From the NCBI RefSeq assembly GCF_054482595.1, contig NZ_CM137008.1: DNA of 64,000 nt; one strand, 5' to 3'. The position numbers are program-made. Below, piece after piece: positions 45,201 to 54,200 of this stretch. Every line of letters begins with the position of its first letter. The first letter of the stretch is position 1.

Positions 45201-48200
45201 GGTCAGCCGCGGGACTGCCGCATTATTGATGTATCGTCATCGTTATGCCCGGGAAGAAGGGCTTGGCAATGTGTTCATTGGCAAAATTGATGGGCGACAA
45301 ACCTGCGTCACACTCGGCTTAGCCGCTATTTTTGCTGCCGTATTATTGCCGGGTATGCATGGTGTGGCTGCTATGGTGGTGACGATGGTGGCGATTTTCA
45401 TCCTCGGTCAGCTTCTCAAACGTACGCTGGGCGGGCAAACCGGCGATACGCTGGGAGCTGCTATAGAGCTTGGTGAACTGGTCTTCCTGCTGGCACTGCT
45501 ATAAAGAGACGTGACATGCAAACACTTGCCGATTTACTGAATACGATCCCTGCCATCGATCCTGCCGCGATGTCGCGTGCACAACGGCATATTGACGGGT
45601 TACTCAAACCTGTTGGTAGCCTGGGAAGGCTGGAGGCGCTTGCCATACAACTGGCAGGAATGCCGGGGTTGAATGGCATACCGCATGTGGGCAAAAAAGC
45701 GGTACTGGTTATGTGTGCCGATCACGGCGTCTGGGAGGAAGGGGTCGCTATTTCCCCAAAAGAAGTGACAGCCATTCAGGCTGAAAATATGACCCGCGGA
45801 ACAACCGGCGTGTGTGTGCTGGCAGCACAAGCGGGCGCTAACGTCTACGTAATTGATGTTGGTATTGATACTGCTGAGCCTATCCCCGGGCTTATCAACA
45901 TGCGTGTTGCTCGAGGTAGTGGCAATATTGCTTCAGCTCCGGCAATGAGTCGCCATCAGGCAGAAAAGTTGCTTTTGGACGTCATATGTTATACGCGGGA
46001 GCTGGCAAAAAACGGTGTTACGCTGTTTGGTGTAGGTGAACTGGGGATGGCAAACACGACACCGGCAGCGGCAATAGTCAGCACAATCACTGGCCGGGCT
46101 CCTGAAGAAGTGGTTGGGATTGGCGCAAACCTGCCGACAGATAAACTGGCTAATAAAATTGATGTTGTGCGCCGGGCGATTACGTTGAATCAACCAAATC
46201 CGCAGGATGGCGTTGATGTCCTGGCAAAAGTGGGTGGATTTGATTTGGTCGGAATGGCTGGCGTGATGTTAGGCGCTGCTTCCTGCGGTTTACCCGTGTT
46301 GCTGGATGGATTTCTTTCTTATGCTGCCGCGCTCGCAGCCTGCCAGATGTCTCCTGCAATCAAACCGTATCTCATTCCTTCTCACCTGTCGGCAGAAAAA
46401 GGGGCGCGTATTGCGCTGTCGCATTTGGGGCTGGAGCCTTTTCTCAATATGGAGATGCGTTTAGGTGAGGGGAGTGGCGCAGCTCTGGCGATGCCCATCA
46501 TCGAAGCTGCCTGTGCGATATATAACAACATGGGCGAACTTGCTGCCAGTAATATTGTTCTACCGGGGAATACGACTTCTGATTTGAACAGTTAAAAACG
46601 AAAAGTCTGATAAAAGCTATACTTAACGGATAGCTTTCGCGACTTAGGAAAGGGACATGATGCGTCGTGTAAATATTTTTTGCTCATTTGCTCTGCTTTT
46701 TGCCAGCCATACTAGCCTGGCGGTAACTTATCCATTACCTCCAGAGGGTAGCCGTTTAGTGGGGCAGTCGTTTACTGTAACTGTTCCTGATCACAATACC
46801 CAGCCGCTGGAGACTTTTGCCGCACAATACGGGCAAGGGTTAAGTAACATGCTGGAAGCGAACCCGGGCGCTGATGTTTTTTTGCCGAAGTCTGGCTCGC
46901 AACTCACCATTCCGCAGCAACTGATTTTGCCCGCCACTGTTCGTAAAGGGATTGTGGTTAACGTCGCTGAGATGCGTCTTTATTACTACCCACCAGACAG
47001 TAATACTGTGGAAGTCTTTCCTATTGGTATCGGCCAGGCTGGGCGAGAAACCCCGCGTAACTGGGTGACTACCGTTGAACGTAAACAAGAAGCTCCAACC
47101 TGGACGCCAACGCCGAACACTCGGCGCGAATATGCGAAACGAGGGGAGAGTTTGCCCGCATTTGTTCCTGCGGGCCCCGATAATCCCATGGGGCTGTACG
47201 CGATTTATATTGGCAGGTTGTATGCCATCCATGGTACCAATGCCAATTTTGGTATTGGGCTCCGGGTAAGTCAGGGCTGTATTCGTCTGCGCAATGACGA
47301 TATCAAATATCTGTTTGATAATGTTCCTGTTGGGACGCGTGTGCAAATTATCGACCAGCCAGTAAAATACACCACTGAACCAGATGGCTCGAACTGGCTG
47401 GAAGTTCATGAGCCGTTGTCGCGCAATCGTGCAGAATATGAGTCTGACCGAAAAGTGCCATTGCCGGTAACCCCATCTTTGCGGGCGTTTATCAGCGGGC
47501 AAGAAGTTGATGTAAATCGCGCAAATGCTGCGTTGCAACGTCGATCGGGAATGCCTGTGCAAATTAGTTCTGGTTCAAGACAGATGTTTTAAGAGCGTTG
47601 GTAATTAGAAAGCAAAAAGCCTGCTAGAAAGCAGGCTTTTTTGAATTTGGCTCCTCTGACTGGACTCGAACCAGTGACATACGGATTAACAGTCCGCCGT
47701 TCTACCGACTGAACTACAGAGGAATCGTGTGAACGGGGCGCATATTAATGGCAGTGCATGGTGATGTCAAAGGGTGAAATGCATTTTTTTGTTTGTTTGC
47801 TGTCAATTTCAACAAAGTGGTGAGCTTTCAATCTTATTGGGTAATGAACCATCGTGGTGCATACCCTCCTTTTATAGGGCAGGGGAACGCGACAGCTGAT
47901 TAAAGGAGCAAATGACGAATCTATCATAATCTCTTATTTGACAGTTGGTTAGCTTGTACATCAACGCCAAAATAAAACTGGCAAGCATCTTGCAATCTGG
48001 TTGTAAGTAATGGCGGCACTTGGGCCGATTCTTAAAAACCGGAGGCAACATGAACTTCAGACGCCTGAAATACTTCGTAAAAATTGTAGATATTGGTAGC
48101 CTGACCCAGGCTGCTGAAGTATTGCATATCGCACAACCAGCGCTCAGCCAGCAGGTTGCCACACTGGAAGGTGAGTTAAATCAACAACTTTTGATCCGTA

Positions 48201-51200: not shown

Positions 51201-54200
51201 TGTTATTGCCGGAAATTTTATCGCGTTTTCAATTGCGGCTCTTATCAACTTACCCGGAAGTGCGCTCGGCTCTGCTTCTACGATCATTACAGGCCGAAGG
51301 TTGGGGGTAGGGCAGATAGCGCAAGCAGAGATTCAGTTGCGGCATGTGTTCTGGCTTTCCACTCTTGGATTAACGGCCATCGCCTGGCTAACGGCTCCCT
51401 TTGCCGGGGTTATGGCATCGTTTTACACCCAGGATCCACAGGTTAAACATGTCGTTGTGATTCTGATTTGGCTAAATGCTTTATTTATGCCTATTTGGTC
51501 CGCCTCATGGGTGCTACCCGCTGGATTTAAAGGTGCTCGCGATGCCCGTTACGCCATGTGGGTTTCTATGTTGAGCATGTGGGGTTGCCGGGTTGTCGTC
51601 GGTTATGTGCTGGGCATCATGCTTGGCTGGGGTGTGGTTGGTGTCTGGATGGGAATGTTTGCCGACTGGGCTGTGCGGGCCGTGCTGTTTTACTGGCGAA
51701 TGGTTACTGGACGTTGGCTGTGGAAATACCCTCGATCCGAACCGCAAAAGTGTGAAAAAAAGCCAGCTGTGTCGGAATAAACGACAAAATGCAGATTATT
51801 TCAGCAAACGATTTCAAATTTAAAAAACAGGCTTTGACATTATGGGTGGGCATCGCTAATATTCGTCTCGTTCTCACGATTCCTCTGTAGTTCAGTCGGT
51901 AGAACGGCGGACTGTTAATCCGTATGTCACTGGTTCGAGTCCAGTCAGAGGAGCCAAATTTTAGTTTTGAGATATCTCTATGAGTCTCAAAACAGTTAAA
52001 AAATAAAAATTATTTTTACCCGGTTACCTTGTAAAAAAGTGACCGGGTTTTTTGATTTCTGTGTTTCGTGCGCTTAATCGAGTCTCACGCTTCAGTGAGC
52101 AAGTTGCCCCCAACAGACATCACGATTCGCAAGGTCAAAAACTCTGTTCCATGAAGTACCGTACAAAGATAAAGAGAAAAATGCCTTATGCGGGATGTCG
52201 CTATCGCGTCTTTATCGGGAAACTATGCGTTATTGCCACTTTGCCTTCTGTAATCAGAAAAAGAAGAACTGGAATTTTAATAAATATTATTTCTCTGGGA
52301 ACGGGGATTTTTTATAATCAATATGACGAGTTGAACATTATATTTTTTATAAGGGTTATATGAGATTAAAGAAATCTGCCGTAAAGACAGATTTCTTTAA
52401 AAGATAATTAGAGATTTGCGACGTTATGATAAACTTTTTGTACATCGTCGTCATCTTCAAGGGCATCAACAAGCCCTTCAAAGATTTCTAAATCTTCTGG
52501 GGAAAGCTCAACTTCAGATTGAGCAATCATTTCTAATTCTGTTGTTGAGAACTCAGTGATTCCAGCTGCTTTTAGAGCCGCGATTCCTTTATGAAGGTCA
52601 GTAGGTTCAGTATAAATAACAATGTTACCTTCTTCTTCAGTCACATCACGAACATCAACTTCAGCTTCAAGTAAAATTTCAAAAATATGGTCAGGGTCTG
52701 TCCCCTTAAATACAATCACACCCGTATTGTCAAACATATAGCTGACAGAACCTGCCGCTCCGATATTGCCGCCTTTTTTATTGAAAATTGTGCGAACGTT
52801 AGCAATCGTACGGTTAACATTTGAAGTCAATGTCTCGGCGATAATCATTGAGCCATTAGGACCAAAGCCTTCATAACGTCCCTGCACGAACGTTTCATCT
52901 CCGCCGCCTTTGGCTTTATCAATTGCTTTATCAATAACGTGCTTTGGAACTTGTGCCTGCTTTGCACGTTCAATAACGAATTTTAAAGATGTGTTTAATT
53001 CTGGATCAGGTTCACCTTGTTTGGCAGCAGCATAGATTTCTACACCGAATTTTGCATAAATTTTAGACGTTGCACCGTCTTTAGCCGTTTTTTTAGCAAC
53101 AATATTGGCCCATTTACGTCCCACTGGAATGATCTCCTCGAAAATTTATTTACATTACAGGTAAATCGTTAACATGTGTTAATTCGGCATATTATATCAT
53201 AACAGGAAAAATCTCGTCTATTAGAAATAAAAATATTCTAAAGCCATAATCTTATATTTTGTTTTATAAATACTAATGTTGTTGGCGGGATTTTTTATAA
53301 TTATGTTTTTAAAGCATACTTGCTTTTAATATGCGGAAATCATTAAGACGATAATGAAACTCGCATTTGCCCAAGGAAGCAAACAGCCCGCGTTTATTGC
53401 AGGCTATTTGCCAGATGTCTTACTTAATCCTTCACATCTATTTCTGATAAGAAGGTTCAGAACTTATTATCGGAACGGCGGCTCATTAAAGGTTCGTAAT
53501 TTACGTGAATGCAGTCGGTCGCCTTCTGCGCGCAGCAAATCGATCGCCCGAATGCCAATTTGTAGGTGTTCGGAAATAGCGCCTTCATAAAAACGGTTAG
53601 CCTGACCGGGAAGTTTAATCTCGCCATGCAACGGTTTATCTGAAACACACAGTAGTGTCCCGTATGGCACGCGGAAACGATATCCTTGCGCGGCAATGGT
53701 TGCACTTTCCATATCAATTGCTACGGCCCGGCTTAAGTTAAAACGAAGTGCAGAAGCTGAGTAACGTAATTCCCAGTTCCTGTCATCTGTGGTTACCACA
53801 GTACCAGTACGTAGCCGCTGTTTGACTTCCTCACCGGGCCTGCCACTCACCAGCTTGGTGGCGTCATAAAGCGCACGTTGCACTTCAGCAATGCTCGGAA
53901 TAGGAATATCGGGCGGCAGAACCGCATCAAGAACGTGGTCATCGCGTAAATAAGCGTGTGCAAGTACATAATCGCCAATGGCCTGACTTTCACGTAATCC
54001 GCCACAGTGACCAATCATCAACCAGACATCCGGGCGTAGCACTGCCAGATGATCGCAGATGGTTTTAGCATTTGACGGTCCCACGCCAATATTCACCAGA
54101 GTAATACCCTGACCATCGGCGGTAATTAAATGCCATGCTGGCATCTGATGTTTTTTCCATGCAAGGTCGGAAATGGCTTCTTCTGGCGCTTCGGTTTCGG

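Follow-up and report, generated by a model that had tools for sequence, protein, structure and literature searches.

The 64,000-nucleotide stretch of Escherichia coli DNA analysed here (hereafter, the window) carries three tRNA-Asn genes and a large accessory region, which raises the question of whether these genes are occupied by integrated elements and, if they are not, by what route the accessory DNA came to lie near them. That asn tRNA genes are classical integration sites for large islands, as the original prediction held, is documented for the HPI, whose integration sites include asnT and asnV, and for the pks island, whose sites include asnW, asnV and asnU (PMC8209727, PMC7545054). With ARAGORN, we identified exactly three tRNA-Asn(GTT) genes in the window, where the prediction had placed them: one at the asnV position (47648..47723, minus strand), with its 3′ end toward ldtA across a gap of 55 bp; one at the asnU position (50057..50132, minus strand), with its 3′ end toward cbl across a gap of 37 bp; and one at the asnW position (51881..51956, plus strand), with its 3′ end toward yeeN, from which a spacer of K-12 length (451 bp) separates it. 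Each scored 72.6 bits against Rfam (E = 6e-14). The three sequences of 76 nt are mutually identical, and together with short flanks the copies form repeats of 84 nt and 85 nt (100% identity) and 104 nt (96%). A fourth gene of this kind, asnT, is located roughly 2 kb past the end of the window, which thus shows asnV, asnU and asnW only.

Comparison to K-12 MG1655 shows that all three genes are in the empty configuration, as predicted. A core block at 43825..58003 is colinear with K-12 in a single HSP of 14,183 bp (98.56% identity) and contains, in order, a cbiP′ fragment, cobU, cobS, cobT, ldtA, asnV, nac, cbl, asnU, yeeO, asnW, yeeN, amn, shiA and a GT9 gene. The distances between the tRNA genes and their neighbours equal those of K-12 (ldtA, 55 bp; nac, 326 bp; cbl, 37 bp; yeeO, 100 bp; yeeN, 451 bp), and, against the reference empty site of K-12, the tRNA flanks are unbroken within this one HSP. 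All 3 of the 3 tRNA genes are intact, as is characteristic of an unoccupied attachment site, including the 3′-terminal 16-nt att core CCAGTCAGAGGAGCCA (47648-47663 at the asnV position, 50057-50072 at the asnU position and 51941-51956 at the asnW position). The HPI, the pks island and ICEEc1 use these 16 nt as the attachment site of their P4-type integrases; here the site is vacant.

The prediction that core genes with terminators directly flank all three tRNA genes agrees both with the K-12-like spacings and with stable hairpins followed by a U-run, which were found downstream of each gene (folding z-scores of -4.0 to -5.6). Two of these are two-way terminator hairpins, one common to ldtA and the asnV-position tRNA (47614..47641; -18 kcal/mol, z = -4.9) and the other common to cbl and the asnU-position tRNA (50021..50049; -19.5 kcal/mol, z = -5.6); the third, with a T-run, lies about 60 nt 3′ of the asnW-position tRNA (52018..52054, plus strand; -17.4 kcal/mol, z = -4.0). 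A TTGACA-type promoter match precedes every one of the three genes, which would be ordinary, functional and independently transcribed genes that retain the K-12-like arrangement, the ancestral one.

Of 5426 complete E. coli genomes, 4667 (86%) have an intact K-12-like junction at asnV, 5179 (95%) at asnU and 4970 (92%) at asnW. The contrast originally drawn between empty tRNA genes and a heavily accessorised neighbourhood therefore holds as far as the emptiness is concerned but is not surprising, because the empty state is the majority state in E. coli. In this strain, asnV, asnU and asnW are free of islands (pks, HPI or ICE), an ordinary, known and already explained state, the record of which is useful for annotation and otherwise matters little.

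Searches for traces of tRNA-directed integration were negative throughout. Apart from the three genes themselves, nothing in the window matched the tRNA 3′ end, either as a 16-mer with up to 2 mismatches or as a 25-mer with up to 3 mismatches, and no tRNA fragment was found at E ≤ 5; no Asn 3′-end repeat was found in the near-identical strain TUM1880 across 132 kb that span the complete 74-kb island. Applied to the pks-positive genome PA45B as a positive control, the repeat test recovered the expected extra core copy, 55 bp from ldtA. A tblastn search with a panel of six integrases detected no integrase-like sequence in the window (best E = 0.44) and, in the 132 kb of TUM1880, nothing beyond an unrelated serU prophage; the same panel cross-detected the pks integrase of PA45B at 31-54% identity. 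A Pfam scan of ORF fragments in 37644-40000 (beside the colibactin-type relic described below) and 42698-44276 (beside cobU) yielded no integrase, with a sensitivity that is limited for small remnants, given that it missed the short pieces of IS4 and cbiP present in the PGAP annotation. The PGAP annotation of the TUM1880 island, in which fragments down to 90 bp are called, contains no integrase either. The original prediction that the tRNA-Asn genes carry no integrase or direct-repeat remnant thus stands, and 1..44218, where such a trace would have spoken against it, shows neither a tRNA-Asn 3′ repeat nor an integrase remnant. This region also lacks a border abutting a tRNA 3′ end, with cobU-cobS-cobT-ldtA and the cbiP fragment intervening, as well as a distal direct repeat and a tyrosine recombinase. 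With no repeat, no integrase and core genes in between, a decayed Asn-integrated element was rejected as the identity of the accessory region.

The comparison with an island-carrying genome points the same way. In phylogroup B2, pks is found at asn tRNA genes in configurations 1A-1D (Auvray et al. 2021, PMC8209727). PA45B, a B2 genome with pks at an asn tRNA, has the same tRNA-Asn sequence and 16-nt att core as the window, and its neighbouring core genes are 97-98% identical. However, it carries a P4-type integrase beside the tRNA, a 54-kb clb cluster and a second core copy 55 bp from ldtA, none of which is present in the window, and its asnV-asnW segment is inverted, whereas that of the window is not.

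Where, then, does the accessory DNA lie? It starts just past cobU (44219) and its cbiP fragment, at the position where the K-12 annotation places the cryptic prophage CP4-44, as the original prediction had it. The accessory region thus occupies the known variable locus of CP4-44 and PAI-cobU, a non-tRNA hot spot; 'PAI-cobU' is itself listed as an island site (PMC7545054). The conserved cobU-proximal part (38169..44218) comprises ibrA (38169-39401), an ibrB-like gene with an internal stop (39386-40030), yoeA, a TonB-dependent receptor pseudogene (40401-42547), an IS4-family remnant (43727-43915) and the cbiP fragment (43924-44067), and is continuous with the cobU-proximal ends of both K-12 CP4-44 and a B2 PAI-cobU. 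PA45B shares this part from 38222 on (98.2% identity over 38222-47663), having ibrAB-yoeA-IS4′-cbiP′ in common with the window. K-12 shares 42242-44218, the first ~2 kb past cobU (cbiP′, yoeG/yoeH and the start of yoeA; 99.9% identical, with 99.87% over 42242-43828), and then differs: in K-12 the breakpoints are marked by IS5H and IS2F, and yeeP-flu-yeeRST-cbeA-cbtA comes next, whereas yoeA in the window is uninterrupted, though frameshifted, and leads into ibrBA, a clb relic and a mosaic of metabolic cargo. The islands PAI-cobU and GI-cobU of ExPEC (CFT073, 536 and UTI89) lie past cobU as in the window and are named for this protein gene (PMC7545054). The ExPEC cobU islands are listed with Hma and the Fbp iron system (PMC7545054), in contrast to the aspartate/C4-dicarboxylate, galactonate and asparaginase genes of the window. 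The cbiP fragment adjoins cobU, and a PduV-family ORF adjoins tmaR in TUM1880 and K-12.

The clb relic, a decayed clbO′-clbP′-clbQ′ segment resembling the colibactin island (37567..38169, plus strand), is cut off at ibrA. Its two fragments, about 600 bp in total, correspond to the 3′ part of clbO (37567-37825; 82.7% identity to canonical pks) and to the 3′ end of clbP with the 5′ part of clbQ (37828-38169; 86.6%); these are the only matches in the window (83-87% identity) to the complete clbA-clbS cluster, which is absent. With 13-17% divergence, the relic has substitutions at all codon positions, indels and frame breaks, and it is present in about 150-200 of the 5,426 genomes.

The distal part of the window's accessory DNA is a variable cargo mosaic (1..32959), which matches, at 99.9% identity, a block of the accessory region associated with thrW in GPEC60-12-649 (NZ_CM160084.1); roughly 190 genomes carry this block. 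The best-matching genome differs from one part of the window to another. The mosaic contains rikA, two aspA-dcu modules, cuyB, hypT, dgoRKAD, asparaginases, pepT-dcuC, ansB and dcuR, along with remnants of IS66, IS3, IS200, IS1 and a group II intron. Rfam matches to isrC and STnc490 were rejected as independent sRNA genes, as they fall on an ISEc31 copy, at its 5′ end, and on an IS200 remnant. An IS2 copy (31172..32502) interrupts a dcu-family transporter gene and is flanked by a 5-bp target duplication; TUM1880 lacks this element and is offset from the window by 1,337 bp as a result. At an IS1 copy in the island (16426..17193), about 8 kb of GPEC60-12-649 is missing. A second IS1 (58004..58771), inverted relative to the one at 16426, lies between the GT9 gene and yeeJ, flanked by the 9-bp target duplication AGCAAACCC; neither K-12 nor TUM1880 has this copy. 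The match to K-12 stops at IS5H and IS2F; that to PA45B stops some 0.7 kb away from an IS2-like element that PA45B carries. Remodelling of the accessory region by IS is therefore directly observed, given the breakpoints at IS5/IS2, the recent IS2 and IS1 insertions that are absent from TUM1880 and the ~8-kb loss at IS1. Of the original statement that the island arrived or was remodelled by IS activity, the remodelling accordingly stands; arrival by IS activity may be inferred, and homologous recombination through the conserved flanks is an equally possible route.

Taken together, these findings make it highly probable that the empty tRNA sites are in their ancestral arrangement and that the accessory DNA at cobU is a separate, non-tRNA locus shaped by IS and recombination. 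The left-hand accessory DNA would fill the variable cobU-tmaR (yeeX) locus, which holds CP4-44 in K-12 and 'PAI-cobU' in ExPEC and is apparently bordered by relics of a lost cbi/pdu cluster rather than by a tRNA. The cobU-proximal 6 kb would be an old resident segment common to several phylogroups, and the distal content was probably built and reshuffled through IS-mediated deletion and insertion and through recombination between islands. We infer that the original arrival at the cobU locus took place without a tRNA-directed integrase. CP4-type modules, seen here in relatives only and outside the window, usually belong to integrase-borne islands, so that the accessory region may have had a very old origin elsewhere through an integrase; one such module (yeeS-yeeT-cbeA-cbtA-yeeW) is present at the tmaR end in TUM1880, an end that the window stops short of. 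A counterpoint to the favoured explanation is that the accessory region holds the relic of a pks-type island, normally a user of asn tRNA genes.

Among the alternatives, the one that fares best, although we consider it unlikely, is that the cargo was first part of a tRNA-integrated island at thrW and later recombined to the cobU locus via shared IS or CP4-type sequences, so that the original entry would have been tRNA-directed, at a tRNA other than tRNA-Asn. The ~32 kb of cargo that the window shares with GPEC60-12-649, including the same IS and pseudogene remnants, speaks for this scenario, in that the accessory region there, at another chromosomal site, begins right after thrW. However, no integrase was found within the 107 kb examined at thrW. 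At the right-hand block boundary, moreover, the dcu-family gene is full-length at the cobU locus (intact in TUM1880) and truncated at thrW, which therefore favours, if anything, movement in the opposite direction, from cobU to thrW. Whatever its direction, the near-identity of this block at the cobU and thrW loci, a side observation of modest value, exemplifies cargo moving between hot spots without an integrase of its own.

Precise integrase-mediated excision leaves no scar, and one or more of the asn sites might once have held an HPI, pks or ICE that was excised precisely by integrase and excisionase, restoring an intact attB. Islands of these types are known at asnV, asnU and asnW, the integrative module of pks is conserved (PMC8209727), and the clb relic lies ~9.5 kb from the asnV-position gene. 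Still, conserved core genes separate the relic from asnV, nothing in the sequence points to such an event, and the flanks are colinear with K-12, which shares gene order, spacings and empty sites from asnV through asnU to asnW over the 14.2-kb block (98.6%). The empty state is also the simplest ancestral state because it is common to 86-95% of genomes per site; we regard past occupation followed by excision as quite improbable. Very improbable indeed is that the accessory region past cobU is the decayed rest of an asnV-integrated island, for example an old pks-type one, whose integrase and repeat were deleted later: the relic is oriented relative to the asnV-position tRNA as clbP-clbQ are in the canonical PA45B island, but ~3.4 kb of core (cobU, cobS, cobT and ldtA) and the cbiP fragment intervene, arranged as they are in K-12 and B2, the searches for a repeat, a tRNA fragment and an integrase remnant were negative, and pks islands are also known at an IS66-flanked non-tRNA locus in A/B1 strains (PMC8209727), so that the presence of a pks relic does not by itself point to integration at a tRNA.

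The separate-locus explanation leaves the origin of the clb relic itself, likewise of modest value, to be considered. The pks islands at the non-tRNA locus of phylogroups A and B1 (configuration 2A/2B, IS66-flanked; PMC8209727) resemble the window in having clb in a CP4-type context among IS remnants, without integrase, tRNA or direct repeats; this comparison is one of context, as those islands are complete and highly conserved, whereas the ~600 bp in the window are diverged and frame-broken. An exact-match 30-mer scan of 100,044 species-representative genomes, which would overlook more diverged donors, hit nothing but Klebsiella, Erwinia oleae and two Serratia clusters, none of which resembles the relic more than the canonical island does; the Erwinia and Serratia clusters are more distant from the relic than the E. 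coli/Klebsiella type is. The literature searched contains no mention of a clb relic beside ibrA. We tentatively suggest, as a possibility that we hold with some doubt, that the relic is the scar of an older, independently acquired colibactin-type island at the non-tRNA cobU hot spot in a non-B2 lineage, most of which has been deleted. If so, pks-type islands would have been both gained and lost in E. coli outside B2, possibly before their acquisition by B2.

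The window is Escherichia coli DNA and contains three tRNA genes, all identified by ARAGORN as tRNA-Asn(GTT) and all scoring 72.6 bits in Rfam, at the asnV (47648-47723, minus strand), asnU (50057-50132, minus strand) and asnW (51881-51956, plus strand) positions. Their 76-nt sequences are identical, and the identity runs a few bases past the gene ends: the two minus-strand copies have 84 nt in common (100%), and the first and third form a 104-nt inverted repeat (47644-47747 and 51857-51960, 96%) that also covers the ~24 nt preceding the tRNA. Each gene is preceded by a match to a TTGACA-type promoter and followed by a stable hairpin with a U-run, which the first and second copies have in common with a convergent gene (ldtA and cbl, respectively). 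The surrounding gene order is the reverse reading of asnV-asnU-asnW in K-12 (MG1655); positions 43825-58003 align with K-12 in one HSP of 14,183 bp (98.56% identity), and the gaps between the tRNAs and their neighbours (55, 326, 37, 100 and 451 bp) are within 1 bp of the K-12 values. The asnV-, asnU- and asnW-position sites are empty in the window: the identical copies and K-12-colinear flanks confirm the original prediction of three identical, unoccupied tRNA-Asn genes, and the K-12 spacings and the hairpin with U-run 3' of each gene bear out its claim that core genes with terminators flank them directly.

The near-identical E. coli strain TUM1880 (NZ_CP135706.1) is colinear with the window at 99.8-99.9% identity up to position 58003, except for two IS insertions; beyond that point, in yeeJ, identity is 97.2%. 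Its order, as annotated by PGAP, is island, cbiP fragment, cobU, cobS, cobT, ldtA, tRNA-Asn, nac, cbl, tRNA-Asn, yeeO, tRNA-Asn, yeeN, amn, shiA, a GT9 gene and yeeJ. A fourth asn gene, asnT, follows on the far side of yeeJ, some 2 kb past the window's edge, and is empty in TUM1880.

The 3'-terminal 16-mer of tRNA-Asn (CCAGTCAGAGGAGCCA), the core that recurs at the distal end of islands integrated at asn genes, has no copy in the window outside the three genes at up to 2 mismatches, nor has the 3'-end 25-mer at up to 3 mismatches. In the control PA45B, a phylogroup B2 strain carrying the colibactin (pks) island, the same core pattern has an additional match 55 bp from ldtA, on the distal side of the clb cluster (54 kb), and the tRNA has a P4-type integrase beside it; this 55-bp distance is exactly the asnV-ldtA spacing of the window. 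Six integrases (the pks P4-type integrase, IntA, IntB, IntS, IntF and a lambdoid integrase) were compared with the whole window by tblastn, and nothing better than E = 0.44 was found. At the control locus, IntA, IntB and IntS recover the pks integrase with 31-54% identity (E from 1e-65 to 1e-138). Across 132 kb of TUM1880, enough to include its island in full (74 kb, tmaR to cobU), the panel matched nothing but an unrelated prophage integrase at serU. Rfam (E <= 5) detected no tRNA fragment in positions 1-47600, and Pfam, the sensitivity of which is limited for short remnants, detected no integrase domain in the ORF fragments adjoining cobU and the clb relic described below; the pseudogene fragments of the TUM1880 island, called by PGAP down to 90 bp, also include no integrase. 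Thus, the search of positions 1..44218 for an Asn 3'-end repeat or integrase remnant, either of which had been named as evidence against the prediction, was negative, and in the suggested comparison with genomes carrying islands at these tRNAs, PA45B shows both repeat and integrase and the window neither.

Relative to the window, PA45B has the stretch between the outer asn genes flipped and carries the pks island between ldtA and a tRNA-Asn. This inversion is on record for the configuration common in B2 strains (PMC8209727); the window shows the orientation without inversion or pks. That an island once sat at one of the asn sites and was precisely excised is possible but unlikely. Among 5,426 complete E. 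coli genomes, searched with 3-kb queries centred on each tRNA and scored for a contiguous K-12-like junction, ldtA-asnV-nac was contiguous in 4,667 (86%), cbl-asnU-yeeO in 5,179 (95%) and yeeO-asnW-yeeN in 4,970 (92%), so that all three are intact in between 73% and 86% of genomes. Empty asn sites are a common state, in no way unusual among E. coli. This agrees with published site usage: pks occupies asnW, asnV or asnU chiefly in certain B2 lineages, and HPI occupies asnT and at times asnV (PMC8209727, PMC7545054).

The accessory DNA lies beyond cobU, as predicted, where K-12 annotation places the cryptic prophage CP4-44; this locus is listed as PAI-cobU in reviews of ExPEC (PMC7545054). With so common an empty state and two loci that the literature already covers well, the finding is ordinary and already known. 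The island has three layers: a conserved proximal segment, a rare segment and a cargo mosaic. The proximal segment (38169-44218; ibrA, an ibrB-like gene, a frameshifted TonB-receptor gene (yoeA), an IS4-family remnant and the cbiP fragment) is common to PA45B at 98.2% from 38222 onward. Positions 42242-43828 match K-12 at 99.87%, up to K-12's own IS5H and IS2F insertions, and the alignment then continues to cobU in the next HSP. In TUM1880 and K-12, a PduV-family ORF adjoins tmaR at the opposite end of the locus. This ORF and the proximal segment with its cbiP fragment suggest that the island may sit where a cbi/pdu cluster was lost rather than at a tRNA, a reading that leans on the arrangement of the Salmonella cob/pdu region.

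The rare segment (~32960-38168), found in about 145-150 genomes, comprises two dcu-family transporter genes, an argH-like lyase gene, a dgoD fragment and a clb relic. The galactonate dehydratase (dgoD) fragment (37205-37464), beside the relic, duplicates part of the island's dgoD (10013-10307) in inverted orientation at 89%. The relic, which PGAP annotates as fragments of clbP and of a thioesterase immediately to the left of ibrA, consists of the 3' part of clbO (37567-37825, 82.7%) and the 3' end of clbP with the first ~124 nt of clbQ (37828-38169, 86.6%); between these pieces the greater part of clbP has been lost, and the relic is truncated at ibrA. Substitutions hit every codon position (10/6/16 in clbO, 12/6/7 in clbP) and, together with frame-breaking indels, mark it as a long-decayed pseudogene. 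It is nearer the E. coli/Klebsiella island than the clusters of Erwinia oleae (83%/81%) or Serratia (81%/75%), and about 150-200 of the 5,426 genomes carry it. We rejected it as the sign of a decayed Asn-integrated island: it comes without integrase or repeat, conserved core genes lie between it and asnV, and complete pks islands are also known in A/B1 strains at a non-tRNA, IS66-flanked locus (PMC8209727, section 18). No description of the relic was found in the literature searched, and it is a minor lead.

Remodelling of the island by IS elements is directly visible. An IS2 (31172-32502) with a 5-bp target duplication has no counterpart in TUM1880; it splits a dcu-family C4-dicarboxylate transporter gene that is whole in that strain. 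The right-hand IS1 (58004-58771), with a 9-bp target duplication and absent from K-12 and TUM1880, is a recent insertion. Another IS1 (16426-17193) lies where strain GPEC60-12-649 has about 8 kb more. Homology breaks off at IS elements in the comparison with K-12 and about 0.7 kb from an IS2-like element in that with PA45B. Of the claim that IS activity rather than tRNA-directed integration accounts for the island, the remodelling and the absence of a tRNA-integration signature stand as observed, and how the accessory DNA first came to the cobU locus is the part that we infer. The two IS1 copies are inverted (99%) and enclose the whole cobU-asn tRNA cluster (~41 kb), and could serve as substrate for a large inversion.

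The cargo mosaic (1-32959) holds metabolic modules amid IS66, IS3, IS200, IS1 and group II intron remnants. Excluding the IS2 copy and the ~8-kb IS1-associated difference, its ~32 kb are 99.9% identical to a block in GPEC60-12-649 (NZ_CM160084.1, 4781479-4820321) within an accessory region starting directly after thrW; the same cargo thus occurs at two island loci, cobU and thrW, in different strains, a further minor lead. There are two aspA-dcu modules in the island, and a 1,451-nt inverted duplication (2775-4225 and 23627-25077, 99%) covers an aspartate ammonia-lyase gene. Rfam matches to isrC (14049-14171, 150 bits), at the 5' end of an ISEc31 (IS3-family) transposase CDS, and to STnc490 (8284-8407), adjoining an IS200 tnpA remnant, look like IS leader sequences, not independent sRNA genes. 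Group II intron D1-D4 RNA domains (19589-19877, minus strand) beside fragmented reverse-transcriptase ORFs (18908-19551) look like a degraded intron. At the other end of the window, the inverse-autotransporter gene yeeJ contains a 300-nt segment three times (62262-63779; 609-nt spacing; 80% and 63% relative to the first copy), probably corresponding to its repeated Ig-like domains.
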